Below are positions 976 to 47,183 of a DNA stretch of 64,000 nucleotides, piece after piece. A program made the translations under genes and the position numbers. Origin of the DNA: Escherichia coli (GTDB lineage: Bacteria > Pseudomonadota > Gammaproteobacteria > Enterobacterales > Enterobacteriaceae); assembly GCF_022846255.1 (NCBI RefSeq), contig NZ_AP025682.1; one strand, given 5' to 3'. Numbering within the stretch: position 1 is the first letter of the stretch; every line of letters begins with the position of its first letter. The notes beneath the pieces were generated by a model. It had not been told where the DNA came from and searched no databases. It saw only the letters and a program-made list of their open reading frames with translations.

Positions 976-1051
976 TGGTGGGTCGTGCAGGATTCGAACC
1001 TGCGACCAATTGATTAAAAGTCAACTGCTCTACCAACTGAGCTAACGACCC
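976..1051 (-). tRNA. lysQ: tRNA-Lys (UUU anticodon)
   Basis: 76-nt reverse complement of GGGTCGTTAGCTCAGTTGGTAGAGCAGTTGACTTTTAATCAATTGGTCGCAGGTTCGAATCCTGCACGACCCACCA; gene name from position in the 7-tRNA operon. Confidence 0.9.
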
Positions 1052-1084
1052 CTTGCGGGATTATGCTGCTTTAATCATTCAGGA

Positions 1085-1160
1085 TGGTGGGTCGTGCAGG
1101 ATTCGAACCTGCGACCAATTGATTAAAAGTCAACTGCTCTACCAACTGAGCTAACGACCC
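1085..1160 (-). tRNA. lysZ: tRNA-Lys (UUU)
   Basis: Identical 76-nt tRNA-Lys copy. Confidence 0.9.
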
Positions 1161-1208
1161 ATACGGGTGTTACCTGAAAGATTTCTACTCGGAACCAATG
1201 TTTAAAAT

Positions 1209-1284
1209 TGGTGGGTCGTGCAGGATTCGAACCTGCGACCAATTGATTAAAAGTCAACTGCTCTACCAACTGAGCTAACGACCC
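1209..1284 (-). tRNA. lysY: tRNA-Lys (UUU)
   Basis: Identical 76-nt tRNA-Lys copy. Confidence 0.9.
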
Positions 1285-1287
1285 GAG

Positions 1288-1363
1288 TGGTGGGTGATGA
1301 CGGGATCGAACCGCCGACCCCCTCCTTGTAAGGGAGGTGCTCTCCCAGCTGAGCTAATCACCC
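1288..1363 (-). tRNA. valZ: tRNA-Val (UAC)
   Basis: Reverse complement of GGGTGATTAGCTCAGCTGGGAGAGCACCTCCCTTACAAGGAGGGGGTCGGCGGTTCGATCCCGTCATCACCCACCA. Confidence 0.9.
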
Positions 1364-1414
1364 GATACTGCGCTGGATACTACAAACTACTTCCACCGAA
1401 CCCACCGTAATCAG

Positions 1415-1490
1415 TGGTGGGTCGTGCAGGATTCGAACCTGCGACCAATTGATTAAAAGTCAACTGCTCTACCAACTGAGCTAACGACCC
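1415..1490 (-). tRNA. lysW: tRNA-Lys (UUU)
   Basis: Identical 76-nt tRNA-Lys copy. Confidence 0.9.
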
Positions 1491-1492
1491 GG

Positions 1493-1568
1493 TGGTGGGT
1501 GATGACGGGATCGAACCGCCGACCCCCTCCTTGTAAGGGAGGTGCTCTCCCAGCTGAGCTAATCACCC
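1493..1568 (-). tRNA. valT: tRNA-Val (UAC)
   Basis: Second tRNA-Val copy, 2 nt after lysW. Confidence 0.9.
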
Positions 1569-1603
1569 GATACTACGCTGGATACTACAACTAACTATGT
1601 TAG

Positions 1604-1679
1604 TGGTGGGTCGTGCAGGATTCGAACCTGCGACCAATTGATTAAAAGTCAACTGCTCTACCAACTGAGCTAACGACCC
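1604..1679 (-). tRNA. lysT: tRNA-Lys (UUU)
   Basis: First tRNA of the operon on the minus strand; identical tRNA-Lys sequence. Confidence 0.9.
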
Positions 1680-1843: not shown

Positions 1844-2635
1844 TTACATCGCGTTCAGACGTTTTTGCGCCTGTTTAGCGCCATCAGTACCAGGGTATTT
1901 ACTGATAACCTGCTGGTATACGGCTTTCGCTTTTGCGGTGTCACCTTTGTCCTGCATGATGACGCCGACTTTAAACATCGCATCTGCAGCCTTCGGTGAC
2001 TTCGGATAGTTTTTCACTACCGAAGCAAAATAATACGCCGCATCATCTTTTTTACCCTTGTTGTAGTTTAACTGACCCAGCCAATAATTGGCGTTTGGCA
2101 GGTAAGTTGAATCAGGGTAATTTTTGATGAAATTCTGAAATGCCACCATTGCGTCATCCTGGCGGGATTTATCCTGCACCAGCGCAATAGCTGCATTGTA
2201 ATCCGTGTTTGCATCACCGCTTTTCACCGGCGCGCCAGCATTCGCAGTACCAGCATCAGCTGTCGGCGTCGTTGATGCCGCCACACCGCTTTGATCGCCG
2301 CTGGTTGATTGCGCCGCTGCACCACCGCTGCTGAGGCTGTCGATCTGCAACAGGATCTGCTTTTGCCGCTCCACGACCTGATTCAGTTGATACTGATTTT
2401 CCTGAATCTGACCACGCAGGGAATCAATATCGGATTGATTATCAGAGAGTTGTTGCTGGAGTTGGGTTAAAAGCTGGCTGTGAGCATTAGAAATACGCTC
2501 AAGTTGAGTGACGCGGTCTTCGACCGAGCCTGAGCCGACACTACTGATTGGTGCCTGAGCAAAAGCGGCCCAGGGGGCCGCTATACCAACCAGTAACGAC
2601 AGACTCAATAGTTGATGTCTGAAGTTACTGCTCAT
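1844..2635 (-). CDS. cpoB: Cell division coordinator CpoB (YbgF), TPR periplasmic protein
   Basis: 263-aa ORF; translation matches remembered CpoB, last gene of tol-pal cluster. Confidence 0.95.
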   Translation of the reverse strand: MSSNFRHQLLSLSLLVGIAAPWAAFAQAPISSVGSGSVEDRVTQLERISNAHSQLLTQLQQQLSDNQSDIDSLRGQIQENQYQLNQVVERQKQILLQIDSLSSGGAAAQSTSGDQSGVAASTTPTADAGTANAGAPVKSGDANTDYNAAIALVQDKSRQDDAMVAFQNFIKNYPDSTYLPNANYWLGQLNYNKGKKDDAAYYFASVVKNYPKSPKAADAMFKVGVIMQDKGDTAKAKAVYQQVISKYPGTDGAKQAQKRLNAM

Positions 2636-2644
2636 GCAATTCTC

Positions 2645-3190
<546 letters not shown>

Positions 3191-19794: not shown

Positions 19795-20075
19795 CTGCAT
19801 TTCTTTTGTAGGCCGGATAAGGCATTCACGCCGCATCCGGCGCTGTTTGCCTGATGCGACGCTTGCGCGTCTTATCAGGCCTACGGTTTCTGCATTTCTT
19901 TTGTAGGCCGGATAAGGCGTTCACGCCGCATCCGGCACTGGTTGCCTGATGCGACGCTTGTGCGTCTTATCAGGCCTACGGTTTCTGCATTTCTTTTGTA
20001 GGCCGGATAAGGCGTTCACGCCGCATCCGGCACTGGTTGCCTGATGCGACGCTTGCGCGTCTTATCAGGCCTACG
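19795..20075. repeat. Three tandem REP/BIME-type palindromic units between sucA and sdhB
   Basis: Near-identical ~98-bp units containing gccggataaggcgttcacgccgcatccggc and gatgcgacgcttgcgcgtcttatcaggcctac. Confidence 0.85.
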
Positions 20076-42343: not shown

Positions 42344-43017
42344 CAAACGTTCTGATTGTTGAAGATGAACAGGCTATTCGTCGCTTTCTGCGCACGGCGC
42401 TGGAGGGCGACGGGATGCGCGTCTTTGAGGCCGAAACGCTGCAACGCGGCTTGCTGGAAGCGGCAACCCGTAAGCCAGATTTGATTATTCTCGATCTCGG
42501 CCTGCCCGATGGTGATGGGATTGAGTTTATCCGCGACCTGCGCCAGTGGAGCGCGGTGCCGGTGATTGTGCTTTCCGCACGCAGCGAAGAGAGCGACAAA
42601 ATCGCCGCGCTGGATGCCGGAGCGGATGATTACCTGAGTAAGCCGTTTGGCATTGGCGAATTGCAGGCCCGTCTGCGCGTCGCTTTACGCCGCCACTCCG
42701 CCACCACCGCGCCCGATCCGCTGGTGAAATTTTCCGATGTGACCGTCGATTTAGCCGCCCGCGTGATCCATCGCGGTGAGGAAGAGGTGCATCTCACCCC
42801 GATTGAGTTTCGCCTGCTGGCGGTGCTGCTCAACAATGCCGGAAAAGTGCTCACCCAGCGCCAGCTCCTTAACCAGGTGTGGGGGCCAAACGCGGTCGAA
42901 CACAGCCATTATTTGCGTATTTATATGGGACATCTGCGACAAAAACTGGAACAGGATCCCGCTCGCCCCCGCCATTTCATTACTGAAACCGGTATTGGGT
43001 ATCGGTTTATGCTTTGA
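42340..43017 (+). CDS. kdpE: Response regulator KdpE (OmpR family)
   Basis: 225-aa ORF, receiver plus winged-helix. Confidence 0.95.
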   Translation: MTNVLIVEDEQAIRRFLRTALEGDGMRVFEAETLQRGLLEAATRKPDLIILDLGLPDGDGIEFIRDLRQWSAVPVIVLSARSEESDKIAALDAGADDYLSKPFGIGELQARLRVALRRHSATTAPDPLVKFSDVTVDLAARVIHRGEEEVHLTPIEFRLLAVLLNNAGKVLTQRQLLNQVWGPNAVEHSHYLRIYMGHLRQKLEQDPARPRHFITETGIGYRFML

Positions 43018-43052
43018 ATATTAATTTTAATACATCCTGCCTTTTATTAATT

Positions 43053-43082
43053 AAAGCCGTAATAATAAATACGGCTTTTTAT
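43053..43082 (+). terminator. Rho-independent terminator of kdp operon
   Basis: aagccgt...acggctt hairpin followed by ttttt. Confidence 0.6.
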
Positions 43083-43250
43083 CTTAAACAACACACAAAA
43101 ATAACAATTCAATATTTTATATTACTGAGTAAAAAGCTCATCATTAAATAAATTAAGATTGATCATTTTTTATTGATCACCTTCACAGTTCAACCGTATT
43201 TCCTGGATAGAATACCTTCACCTTCATTCACATCAGGAAAGGTAAATTAA

Positions 43251-43355
43251 ATGGAAAATAACAGCCGCACTATGCCCCATATAAGGCGGACAACTCATAT
43301 TATGAAGTTTGCTCATCGCAATAGCTTCGACTTTCACTTCTTCAATGCCCGTTAG
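43251..43355 (+). CDS. speFL: speF leader peptide SpeFL (34 aa), ornithine-sensing ribosome-arrest peptide
   Basis: Hand translation: MENNSRTMPHIRRTTHIMKFAHRNSFDFHFFNAR; below ORF-track cutoff. Confidence 0.8.
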   Translation: MENNSRTMPHIRRTTHIMKFAHRNSFDFHFFNAR

Positions 43356-43612
43356 TCTACCGACTAAGGGCACTTCAGCGTACAGGTCTTCCTGACTCTC
43401 TGTATTACAGGCATATGCCTGTATTCCGCAGTGCTCATTCTCTGTTAACCCTTGTATTATCAGCCACCGGACTGATAAGGGTTTCTGCATTCTGAAAAAA
43501 GCAAACTTCTGATTAATTTATCAGCAGGGTAACTTTGCTTTTTTTCCGGCACGATCGATTTCTCATTCGAGAAATTGAGGACCTGCTATTACCAAAAATA
43601 AAGAGTTGGAAA

Positions 43613-45811
43613 ATGTCAAAATTAAAAATTGCGGTTAGTGATTCTTGCCCGGACTGTTTTACCACGCAGCGAGAATGTATCTATATTAATGAAAACAGTA
43701 ATATCGATGTGGCGGCAATAGTTTTATCGCTCAACGATGTTACACGCGGAAAACTCGATGAAATCGATGCCACGGGTTATGGCATCCCGGTATTTATTGC
43801 TACTGAAAATCAAGAACGTGTACCCGCAGAGTATTTGCCCCGTATTTCGGGTGTCTTTGAGAATTGCGAATCGCGACGAGAATTTTATGGTCGTCAGTTA
43901 GAAACCGCAGCCAGCCATTATGAAACTCAACTGCGCCCGCCCTTCTTCCGCGCACTGGTCGATTATGTCAATCAGGGTAACAGCGCGTTTGATTGCCCCG
44001 GTCATCAGGGCGGCGAATTTTTCCGTCGCCATCCGGCGGGGAATCAGTTTGTGGAATACTTTGGTGAGGCGCTGTTCCGTGCTGACTTGTGCAACGCGGA
44101 TGTGGCAATGGGCGATCTGCTGATTCACGAAGGCGCGCCATGCATTGCACAGCAACATGCGGCAAAAGTGTTTAATGCCGATAAAACATACTTCGTTCTA
44201 AATGGCACTTCATCTTCTAACAAAGTGGTTTTAAACGCCCTGTTAACACCGGGGGATCTGGTGCTGTTTGACCGTAATAACCATAAATCTAATCACCACG
44301 GAGCGTTGCTACAGGCTGGCGCAACACCAGTTTATCTGGAAACCGCACGCAACCCGTATGGCTTTATCGGTGGTATTGATGCCCACTGCTTCGAAGAAAA
44401 TTACCTGCGCGAACTGATTACAGAAGTCGCACCGCAGCGGGCAAAAGAGGCGCGTCCTTTCCGCCTCGCCGTTATTCAGCTAGGCACTTACGACGGTACG
44501 ATTTATAACGCCCGTCAGGTGGTGGATAAAATTGGTCATCTGTGTGACTACATCCTCTTTGACTCCGCATGGGTCGGCTATGAGCAGTTTATCCCGATGA
44601 TGGCGGACTGTTCACCACTGTTGCTGGATCTTAATGAGAACGATCCGGGTATTCTGGTTACGCAATCTGTGCATAAACAGCAGGCTGGTTTTTCCCAGAC
44701 TTCACAAATCCATAAAAAAGACAGCCATATCAAAGGGCAACAGCGTTATGTACCGCACAAACGCATGAACAACGCCTTTATGATGCATGCCTCCACCAGC
44801 CCGTTCTATCCGCTGTTTGCCGCACTGGATATCAACGCCAAAATGCATGAAGGTGTCAGCGGTCGTAATATGTGGATGGATTGTGTGGTAAATGGCATTA
44901 ATGCCCGCAAACTGATCCTCGATAACTGTCAGCATATTCGTCCATTCGTACCTGAACTGGTGGATGGTAAACCCTGGCAGTCGTATGAAACAGCGCAAAT
45001 TGCGGTTGATCTGCGCTTCTTCCAGTTTGTACCAGGTGAGCACTGGCATTCTTTTGAAGGCTATGCAGAGAATCAATACTTTGTCGATCCGTGCAAACTG
45101 TTGCTGACAACCCCAGGTATTGATGCACGTAACGGCGAATATGAAGCGTTCGGTGTACCCGCGACGATTCTTGCTAACTTCCTGCGCGAAAATGGCGTAG
45201 TGCCGGAAAAATGCGATCTTAACTCCATCCTCTTTCTGCTGACTCCGGCAGAAGATATGGCCAAACTTCAGCAACTTGCTGCTCTGCTGGTACGCTTCGA
45301 AAAACTGCTTGAGTCCGACGCGCCATTATCAGAAGTACTGCCTTCCATCTACAAACAGCATGAAGAGCGCTACACCGGTTATACCCTGCGTCAGTTGTGT
45401 CAGGAAATGCATGATTTGTATGCCCGTCACAACGTGAAACAACTGCAAAAAGAGATGTTTCGTAAGGAACACTTCCCACGTGTCAGCATGAATCCACAAG
45501 AAGCCAACTACGCCTATTTACGCGGTGAAGTGGAGCTGGTTCGTCTGCCGGATGCAGAAGGCCGTATCGCTGCAGAAGGTGCGCTTCCTTATCCTCCGGG
45601 TGTGCTGTGTGTTGTTCCGGGTGAAATCTGGGGTGGTGCTGTTCTGCGTTACTTCAGCGCTCTGGAAGAAGGGATCAACCTGCTGCCAGGTTTTGCACCG
45701 GAGCTTCAGGGTGTCTATATCGAAGAACATGATGGTCGTAAGCAAGTTTGGTGCTATGTCATCAAGCCTCGTGATGCGCAAAGCATCCTGTTGAAAGGGG
45801 AAAAATTATGA
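43613..45811 (+). CDS. speF: Inducible ornithine decarboxylase
   Basis: Start at MSKLKIAVSDSCPDCF; 732 aa. Confidence 0.95.
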   Translation: MSKLKIAVSDSCPDCFTTQRECIYINENSNIDVAAIVLSLNDVTRGKLDEIDATGYGIPVFIATENQERVPAEYLPRISGVFENCESRREFYGRQLETAASHYETQLRPPFFRALVDYVNQGNSAFDCPGHQGGEFFRRHPAGNQFVEYFGEALFRADLCNADVAMGDLLIHEGAPCIAQQHAAKVFNADKTYFVLNGTSSSNKVVLNALLTPGDLVLFDRNNHKSNHHGALLQAGATPVYLETARNPYGFIGGIDAHCFEENYLRELITEVAPQRAKEARPFRLAVIQLGTYDGTIYNARQVVDKIGHLCDYILFDSAWVGYEQFIPMMADCSPLLLDLNENDPGILVTQSVHKQQAGFSQTSQIHKKDSHIKGQQRYVPHKRMNNAFMMHASTSPFYPLFAALDINAKMHEGVSGRNMWMDCVVNGINARKLILDNCQHIRPFVPELVDGKPWQSYETAQIAVDLRFFQFVPGEHWHSFEGYAENQYFVDPCKLLLTTPGIDARNGEYEAFGVPATILANFLRENGVVPEKCDLNSILFLLTPAEDMAKLQQLAALLVRFEKLLESDAPLSEVLPSIYKQHEERYTGYTLRQLCQEMHDLYARHNVKQLQKEMFRKEHFPRVSMNPQEANYAYLRGEVELVRLPDAEGRIAAEGALPYPPGVLCVVPGEIWGGAVLRYFSALEEGINLLPGFAPELQGVYIEEHDGRKQVWCYVIKPRDAQSILLKGEKL

Positions 45812-47127
45812 GTCAGGCTAAATCGAACAAAATGGGCGTCGTTCAGTTAACCATACTGACGATGGTCAACATGATGGGCTCCGGTATCATCATGCTGCCG
45901 ACAAAGCTTGCCGAAGTTGGGACAATCTCAATAATCTCCTGGTTGGTGACTGCCGTAGGCTCAATGGCGCTGGCATGGGCATTCGCAAAATGCGGCATGT
46001 TCAGCCGTAAATCAGGCGGTATGGGCGGTTATGCGGAGTATGCTTTCGGTAAATCAGGGAACTTTATGGCGAACTACACCTACGGTGTCTCGCTGCTGAT
46101 TGCTAACGTCGCAATTGCTATTTCGGCGGTTGGTTACGGCACCGAACTGCTCGGCGCGAGTTTGTCGCCAGTGCAGATTGGTCTTGCGACCATCGGGGTG
46201 CTGTGGATTTGTACCGTGGCTAACTTCGGTGGTGCGCGCATTACCGGGCAAATCAGTAGCATTACTGTGTGGGGGGTCATTATTCCGGTCGTCGGTCTGT
46301 GCATTATCGGCTGGTTCTGGTTTAGCCCGACGCTATACGCTAACTCATGGAACCCGCACCATGTGCCGTTCTTTAGCGCTGTAGGTTCTTCCATCGCTAT
46401 GACGTTGTGGGCTTTCCTTGGTCTGGAGTCAGCCTGTGCCAACGCCGAAGTAGTGGAAAACCCGGAACGTAACGTGCCAATAGCAGTCCTTGGCGGTACG
46501 TTAGGTGCGGCGGTGATTTATATCGTCTCCACCAACGTGATTGCCGGGATTGTGCCAAATATGGAGCTGGCAAATTCAACGGCACCATTTGGCCTGGCCT
46601 TCGCACAGATGTTCACACCAGAAGTGGGTAAAGTCATTATGGCGCTGATGGTGATGTCCTGCTGCGGTTCACTGCTTGGCTGGCAGTTCACCATTGCCCA
46701 GGTGTTTAAATCTTCATCTGATGAAGGCTACTTCCCTAAAATTTTCTCCCGTGTAACCAAAGTGGATGCACCGGTTCAGGGAATGTTGACCATTGTGATT
46801 ATTCAGAGTGGATTGGCACTGATGACCATTAGCCCGTCACTGAACAGCCAGTTCAACGTGCTGGTTAACCTGGCCGTGGTGACCAATATCATCCCGTATA
46901 TTCTGTCGATGGCAGCATTAGTTATTATTCAGCAGGTCGCCAATGTGCCACCGTCAAAAGCGAAAGTAGCAAACTTTGTTGCCTTTGTTGGTGCGATGTA
47001 CAGTTTCTATGCGCTGTACTCATCCGGGGAAGAAGCCATGCTGTACGGTTCCATCGTGACCTTCCTTGGTTGGACACTGTATGGTCTGGTATCTCCACGC
47101 TTTGAACTGAAAAATAAACACGGTTAA
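45808..47127 (+). CDS. potE: Putrescine:ornithine antiporter
   Basis: 439-aa APC-family ORF. Confidence 0.95.
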   Translation: MSQAKSNKMGVVQLTILTMVNMMGSGIIMLPTKLAEVGTISIISWLVTAVGSMALAWAFAKCGMFSRKSGGMGGYAEYAFGKSGNFMANYTYGVSLLIANVAIAISAVGYGTELLGASLSPVQIGLATIGVLWICTVANFGGARITGQISSITVWGVIIPVVGLCIIGWFWFSPTLYANSWNPHHVPFFSAVGSSIAMTLWAFLGLESACANAEVVENPERNVPIAVLGGTLGAAVIYIVSTNVIAGIVPNMELANSTAPFGLAFAQMFTPEVGKVIMALMVMSCCGSLLGWQFTIAQVFKSSSDEGYFPKIFSRVTKVDAPVQGMLTIVIIQSGLALMTISPSLNSQFNVLVNLAVVTNIIPYILSMAALVIIQQVANVPPSKAKVANFVAFVGAMYSFYALYSSGEEAMLYGSIVTFLGWTLYGLVSPRFELKNKHG

Positions 47128-47137
47128 TAAAGCAAAG

Positions 47138-47171
47138 TAAAAAAGGGCGATCTTCTGACCGCCCTTTTTCT
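47138..47171. terminator. Bidirectional Rho-independent terminator between convergent potE and pgm
   Basis: aaaaagggcg...cgcccttttt. Confidence 0.6.
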
Positions 47172-47183
47172 TATTAAATGTGT

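Follow-up and report, generated by a model that had tools for sequence, protein, structure and literature searches.

The leader gene speFL of Escherichia coli encodes a peptide of 34 residues, ends with a UAG stop codon, and is separated from speF by a spacer of 257 nt (Herrero del Valle et al., bioRxiv 10.1101/604074, later Nature Microbiology 2020). Ornithine-dependent stalling at codons 33/34 has been observed by toeprinting and cryo-EM with a peptide identical to the one examined here, and the ornithine pocket is lined by Pro9, Arg12 and Arg13, with residues 10-16 forming an HIRRXXH loop (bioRxiv 10.1101/604074). The effector domain is built on residues F20, F26, F28, F30 and F31, and N32 displaces U2585 such that RF1 is blocked (bioRxiv 10.1101/604074). 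Arginine codons 12 and 13 are rare in E. coli and their role has been probed by synonymous replacement; in the published model, the rare codons slow ribosomes and thereby leave the rut site free of polysomes (bioRxiv 10.1101/604074). Rho dependence of the K-12 leader was demonstrated with bicyclomycin, and a proposed RNA polymerase pause hairpin at the end of speFL has been described for both E. coli and Salmonella (bioRxiv 10.1101/604074). Frameshift and start-codon mutants of the leader ORF lose regulation (bioRxiv 10.1101/604074; PMC6386406).

The corresponding ORF of Salmonella Typhimurium, orf34, likewise carries 34 codons with AGG-CGG at positions 12-13, and is subject to Rho-dependent premature termination just after the hairpin at the end of the ORF, as in the published E. 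coli model (PMC6386406). This ORF begins at +32 of the transcript, uses AGGA as its Shine-Dalgarno sequence, and differs from its E. coli counterpart by a UGA stop codon, a speF start at mRNA position +516 and a spacer of roughly 380 nt (PMC6386406). The 3′ part of orf34 pairs over a long distance with the speF ribosome-binding site, and both this anti-RBS helix and a ‘ring’ in the Salmonella leader have been validated by compensatory mutations (Ben-Zvi et al. 2019, PMC6386406). A third system, TnaC of tnaCAB, resembles SpeFL in its logic: a free amino acid lodges in the exit tunnel and prevents release at the stop codon of the leader peptide, and the stalled ribosome masks a rut site (bioRxiv 10.1101/604074). 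However, TnaC has no sequence relationship to SpeFL, and its ligand is tryptophan rather than ornithine, bound in another pocket. Moreover, TnaC acts on RF2 at UGA (PMC8450073), in contrast to RF1 at UAG for SpeFL.

We examined a 64,000-nucleotide stretch of E. coli genomic DNA (hereafter, the window) in which kdpD and kdpE (ending at 43017) are followed by a 34-codon ORF, by speF and potE on the same strand as this ORF, and then by pgm and seqA on the opposite strand (Table 1). We are nearly certain that the 34-codon ORF is speFL, the ornithine-sensing leader gene of the E. coli speFL-speF-potE operon, in its ordinary and intact form. The existence of an ORF of this length is no proof by itself because 117 ORFs of at least 25 amino acids overlap the surrounding 9 kb. 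Given that chance ORFs are so common, the case for speFL therefore rests on comparisons with the Protein Data Bank (PDB), with K-12, and between E. coli haplotypes.

Table 1. Positions of leader, operon and antisense features in the window.
Feature	Position	Strand	Basis or remark
Intrinsic-terminator-like hairpin and T-run just after the kdpE stop	43053..43078	+	Terminator scan; upstream boundary of the speFL-speF-potE unit
Candidate -10 hexamer TAGAAT of the speFL-speF promoter	43208..43213	+	In block TGGATAGAATA, invariant between two E. coli haplotypes
85-codon antisense ORF, spurious	43233..43490	-	Longest ORF in the kdpE-speF intergenic region
speFL Shine-Dalgarno region AGGAAAGGT	43235..43243	+	Read from sequence
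speFL CDS	43251..43355	+	ATG start, 34 codons, TAG stop; encodes MENNSRTMPHIRRTTHIMKFAHRNSFDFHFFNAR
HIRRTTH, ornithine-recognition loop (HIRRXXH) in the sensor domain (codons 10-16)	43278..43298	+	Translation; kept in family representatives
Rare codons ATA AGG CGG (codons 11-13)	43281..43289	+	Read directly; invariant in second haplotype despite 12 other third-position changes
Effector domain (codons 14-34)	43290..43352	+	F20, F26, F28, F30, F31, N32 present; then A33-R34-TAG
Predicted long-range helix 1, 5′ arm (speFL codons 27-32)	43329..43344	+	RNAalifold, 6 leaders
Hairpin GCCCGUUAGUC-UACC-GACUAAGGGC, the proposed RNA polymerase pause hairpin	43346..43372	+	Spans last two speFL codons and TAG
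speFL-speF spacer, 257 nt, structured RNA; site of Rho-dependent attenuation in the published model	43356..43612	+	Length equals the published 257 nt
Predicted long-range helix 2 (‘ring’-closing), 5′ arm	43376..43389	+	RNAalifold, 6 leaders
Terminator-like hairpin GAAAAAAGCAAAC...GUUUGCUUUUUUUC within the leader	43491..43549	+	A-run and T7-run; -15 to -19 kcal/mol
Predicted long-range helix 2 (‘ring’-closing), 3′ arm, GGACCUGCUAUUACC block	43579..43595	+	RNAalifold, 6 leaders
Predicted long-range helix 1, 3′ arm (speF Shine-Dalgarno and AUG)	43599..43617	+	RNAalifold, 6 leaders
speF, inducible ornithine decarboxylase	43613..45811	+	TIGR04301 ODC_inducible, 1430.8 bits versus cut-off 1310
potE, putrescine-ornithine antiporter	45808..47127	+	NF007938, 854 bits versus 409; TIGR04299, 845 versus 560

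The ORF reads ATG GAA AAT AAC AGC CGC ACT ATG CCC CAT ATA AGG for codons 1-12, CGG ACA ACT CAT ATT ATG AAG TTT GCT CAT CGC AAT for codons 13-24, and AGC TTC GAC TTT CAC TTC TTC AAT GCC CGT TAG for codons 25-34 and the stop. A search of PDB chains with the encoded peptide returned a single sequence, the chain labelled ‘SpeFL’ in the stalled-ribosome structures 6TBV/6TC3, which matches at 34/34 residues (E = 7.6e-20), and the DNA of the ORF is identical to that of K-12 speFL (b4803) at 105/105 nucleotides. The initial annotation had proposed that an intact 34-codon leader lies here, and both the ORF and the peptide it quoted proved exact. Its suggested comparison with published speFL yields no mismatch, and every residue of the arrest motif is present. 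The locus is the type member of the SpeFL family and not merely a relative, and nothing in the sequence counts against reading it as speFL. The Pfam model PF10940 ‘SpeFL’ (DUF2618), of which this peptide is the namesake, nevertheless scores only 23.8 bits (E = 4e-5) against a gathering cut-off of 25, a marginal shortfall that reflects the shortness of the 34-residue peptide and that we do not hold against its membership. An NCBIfam scan of the peptide yielded no matching model.

All residues named as important in the published work are present in the window peptide. These include E2, P9, H10, I11, R12, R13, H16, F20, R23 and N24, together with F26, F28, F30, F31, N32, A33 and R34, after which the UAG stop follows. 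Pro9 directly precedes the recognition loop, such that this portion of the peptide reads P9-H10-I11-R12-R13-T14-T15-H16.

Beyond the ORF, the window and K-12 also share the TAG stop codon, the pause hairpin, a spacer length of 257 nt and the sequence of its first ~100 nt. Over the 623-nt kdpE-speF region, K-12 and the window differ by 12 substituted positions and two single-base indels, and none of these differences touches the ORF, the hairpin or the ~100 nt beyond it. Two of the substitutions are upstream of speFL and the rest are in the distal spacer from 43469 on, including a difference next to the speF Shine-Dalgarno sequence, where the window carries GAGTTGGAAAATG and K-12 carries GAGATGAAAAATG. 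Downstream of potE, the window is without the ybfP/ybfG/ybfI segment of K-12.

A megablast search with the leader found a match in only 1706 of 5426 complete E. coli genomes (31%). A search artefact was considered as the cause of this modest number and was rejected, since wider and second queries recovered a genuine second haplotype of the kdpE-speF region as well as some genomes that are without the operon. The second haplotype (positions 1179-1867 of the retrieved loci L003 and L004, corresponding to window 43018-43612) is carried by O157:H7 Sakai, ST131, PC-NDM34 and others, and accounts for 3352/5426 genomes versus 1706 of the window/K-12 type. At least 368 of the 5426 genomes match neither leader haplotype. 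In strain L26 (L005, NZ_CP146250.1, 1179-1962), which is among the E. coli without speFL-speF-potE, kdpE is followed by a gene for a 164-amino-acid hypothetical protein and then by pgm.

The second haplotype shares with the window the operon and its position, the TAG stop, the rare codons, the pause hairpin and distal conserved blocks. It carries unrelated sequence just after kdpE, and a 51-nt insertion after window position ~43457 lengthens its spacer to 310 nt, versus 257 nt. Within speFL, 15 of 105 bases differ (~14%), of which 12 are at codon position 3, one at position 1 and two at position 2 (binomial P for at least 12/15 changes at position 3 = 2.9e-4). The resulting peptide is altered only by S5N and T7L, with 11 codons changed synonymously and with residues 8-34 and ATA-AGG-CGG unchanged. 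This third-position bias is an independent sign, read from the aligned sequences, that selection acts on the speFL frame.

The same substitution pattern bears on the proposal that the 34-codon ORF arose by chance in an AT-rich intergenic region, and that control of speF is purely RNA-based or promoter-dependent. The abundance of comparable ORFs nearby and the strongly structured leader RNA (see below) are both compatible with this proposal. However, the identical peptide is visible by cryo-EM within the ribosome tunnel, the haplotype substitutions gather at third codon positions, the peptide is also conserved ahead of speF homologues located in different neighbourhoods, and published frameshift and start-codon mutants abolish regulation. 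These four observations already refute a chance ORF, and we assign it a negligible probability.

A second proposal, which places the real gene on the opposite strand and equates it with the 85-codon ORF, draws on the fact that it is the longest ORF in the intergenic region. This reading is exceedingly improbable, as evident by the lack of any match in Pfam and NCBIfam scans of the antisense product and of any annotation for it in identical RefSeq DNA. Furthermore, in the second haplotype the antisense frame spans only 45 codons and both begins and ends elsewhere, and about one third of its aligned residues differ between the haplotypes because silent changes in speFL fall on the first codon positions of the opposite frame. 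The suspicion voiced in the initial annotation that this overlapping ORF is spurious was therefore well founded.

Both speF and potE pass the NCBIfam equivalog/exception cut-offs, and the speF product carries the Pfam domains OKR_DC_1_N, OKR_DC_1 and OKR_DC_1_C. We place the speF start at ATG 43613, as in 100%-identical RefSeq DNA, rather than at TTG 43535, which was given by a mechanical ORF list. With this start, the interval of ‘about 250 nt’ estimated previously between leader ORF and speF is exactly 257 nt, which equals the spacer of the E. coli reporter construct in the published work.

Folding of the leader RNA indicates that the entire 395-nt region is more structured than shuffled sequences (z = -4.36). 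The segment spanning 43330-43400, which includes the proposed pause hairpin, folds at -21.7 kcal/mol compared to -11.1 +/- 2.6 kcal/mol for shuffles (z = -4.07). The second haplotype and one other genus (L010) retain this predicted hairpin around the stop codon, which was not found in the most distant homologue examined. Over approximately 43296-43475, C exceeds G (C/G 1.4-1.7), a modest bias that is compatible with a rut site and not diagnostic of one. An Rfam scan of 43018-43612 gave no match at E <= 1 or at the gathering score, and the leader belongs to no curated RNA family. In the Term-seq supplement of Adams et al. 2021, no 3′ end is listed in the speF leader, and the only one there is antisense and lies inside speF.

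An RNAalifold consensus was computed from six leaders, two of each type. The consensus recovers the pause hairpin, local hairpins with a few compensatory changes (e.g. C-G to U-A in the stem at 43406-43423), and two long-range helices. The first of these is a predicted anti-RBS helix, whose duplex alone is worth -8.4 kcal/mol and which corresponds to the pairing known from Salmonella. The second is a predicted ‘ring’-closing helix with a duplex energy of -15.1 kcal/mol, and both of its arms are mostly invariant in the six leaders. No compensatory changes occur in either long-range helix among the six aligned leaders, where most columns are invariant, and covariation support is absent because the helices are built largely from such columns. 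Therefore, the long-range helices in E. coli are best regarded as a prediction that draws its support from likeness to Salmonella and not from covariation.

The peptide identity and the presence of the relevant sequence elements and predicted structures are demonstrated at this locus. Stalling, Rho dependence and ornithine specificity are expected to apply here by transfer from the literature on the strength of sequence identity. The initial annotation had considered the locus consistent with attenuation by ornithine-sensing ribosome arrest, and this view is supported by a peptide identical to characterised SpeFL that is followed by speF and potE. By this mechanism, RNA polymerase would pause at the hairpin holding the 3′ end of speFL, and the first ribosome to translate speFL would melt the hairpin and release the polymerase. 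When ornithine is scarce, the ribosome would terminate at UAG and depart while rare codons 11-13 hold back later ribosomes, such that the C-rich rut region would be exposed and Rho would terminate transcription just after the hairpin and before speF. When ornithine is abundant, a single L-ornithine would be captured in a pocket made by 23S rRNA and the HIRRXXH loop of nascent SpeFL, the Phe-rich C-terminal domain would compact in the exit tunnel, and Asn32 would displace U2585 so that RF1 could not act. Stalled and queued ribosomes would then cover the rut site and preclude Rho termination. Moreover, a stalled ribosome occupying codons 27-32 would keep the anti-RBS helix open, and speF and potE would be transcribed and translated.

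A different role for the leader ORF has been proposed for Salmonella orf34 (Ben-Zvi et al. 2019, PMC6386406), where the ORF is described as mainly a sensor of arginine supply. At low arginine, pausing at arginine codons 12-13 would determine whether the speF mRNA adopts a fold that is sensitive to RNase G or one that is resistant to it. Several features of the window leader fit such a scheme: the consecutive AGG-CGG codons are present and are invariant in both E. coli haplotypes, the ‘ring’ and anti-RBS layout of Salmonella is recovered as a prediction, and an arginine/RNase G layer is reported for Salmonella itself (PMC6386406). However, this scheme adds to the ornithine mechanism without displacing it, and the same Salmonella study also reports positive regulation by ornithine (PMC6386406). 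Direct capture of ornithine has been documented by toeprinting and cryo-EM with the identical E. coli peptide (bioRxiv 10.1101/604074). In addition, the spacer is 257 nt in E. coli versus roughly 380 nt in Salmonella, and so the RNase G-sensitive structure need not match between the two. We therefore consider it somewhat unlikely that arginine sensing is the main function in E. coli and favor ornithine sensing, while an arginine/RNase G layer may also operate in this species by analogy with Salmonella.

At the terminator-like hairpin in the distal spacer, the T7-run stops ~65 nt short of the speF ATG. Both E. coli haplotypes retain this hairpin, and the A-run and T-run are absent in L010/L011, which derive from another genus. 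A role for this hairpin as a conserved second attenuator was rejected on the basis that these runs are absent in the other genus sampled, and it is probably only a structural element.

The existence of two E. coli leader haplotypes, of which the experimentally studied one is in the minority, is the point we believe should be carried forward from this locus. The mechanistic work on E. coli cited here appears to have been conducted entirely with the minority K-12-like type, because that type supplies both the SpeFL seen in the solved structures and the spacer of 257 nt. The haplotypes also differ next to the speF ribosome-binding site, and we entertain the rather doubtful idea that speF-potE is induced at different thresholds, or expressed at different basal levels, under the two leaders. 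If this is so, findings made in K-12 might not carry over quantitatively to most pathogenic lineages (O157, ST131, B1). In a weaker variant of this idea, the distal hairpin with its T7-run may give E. coli a second checkpoint that does not require Rho.

Upstream of speFL, a strict sigma-70 consensus scan detected no promoter. With the candidate hexamer TAGAAT as -10 element, transcription would begin ~30 nt ahead of the speFL ATG, in line with the start mapped in Salmonella. A direct repeat, ATTGATCA ... ATTGATCA, is located at 43159-43179, preceding the candidate -10 element by ~40-60 nt, and is partly kept in the second haplotype as TATGATCG ... GTTGATCT. A regulator involved in the acid/anaerobic induction of speF might bind at this repeat.

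An exhaustive HMMER search of 1.84 billion representative proteins returned only 13 related small proteins. All 13 carry the core H-I-[RQ]-R-x-[TS]-H, and most full-length members also carry the tail F-D-F-H-x-F-N-A-R; the two most diverged relatives keep the core and not the full tail. In two of the contexts examined, the homologous ORF immediately precedes paired genes for an ornithine decarboxylase and an antiporter, in neighbourhoods that bear no relation to kdp. That only 13 representatives are present in so large a collection indicates that the initial annotation was largely right about gene-caller-based resources when it stated that automated annotation usually misses this ORF, and the same is true of older annotations such as that of O157:H7 Sakai. 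The statement no longer holds for RefSeq/PGAP, where ‘leader peptide SpeFL’ is annotated under the match in 15/15 of the best E. coli records listed and at this locus in the feature table of IAI39 (100%-identical RefSeq DNA), and where K-12 carries b4803. Because the element, its ribosome-bound structure and its mechanism are published and present in reference annotation, the locus is already known and of little discovery value. Its value is that of a positive control, in that a 34-codon regulatory ORF was recognised correctly from raw sequence.

Some copies of speFL are disrupted. In some E. coli contigs (18 read), IS1 is inserted at approximately codon 8 (e.g. L008, 3001-3105; L009, 226-330), yielding a chimeric called ORF that begins MNKLESLPPHIRR..., the first ~23 nt of which we take to be the IS1 terminal repeat. 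In L009, a fragment of the IS1 transposase is directly upstream of the chimeric ORF. Such an insertion should inactivate ornithine sensing because the native start codon, the N-terminal hairpin residues and the promoter are removed. A diverged SpeFL-like ORF, MENNNRFWPHIRRTTHFMMFYHRSCFNFKGFCTHR, with a TGA stop is found at 3001-3108 of L012 (P0012). These contigs have no called decarboxylase downstream and include long stretches without called genes, and L012 may represent a decayed operon.

At the other end of the operon, the convergent genes potE and pgm are separated by just 56 nt (47128-47183), as in O157:H7 Sakai. In K-12 and IAI39, ~1.7 kb separates these two genes and contains either ybfP with ybfG/ybfI pseudogenes or a DUF2625 gene. 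With its Sakai-like 56-nt gap and K-12-like leader, the window therefore joins a K-12-type leader to a Sakai-type potE-pgm junction. Elsewhere in the window, matches at the level of the Rfam gathering score mark a cluster of seven tRNA genes (979-1679, minus strand), the cpoB/ybgF RNA thermometer (2606-2744, minus strand), and three tandem naRNA4 (REP-type) elements (19811-20071, plus strand).
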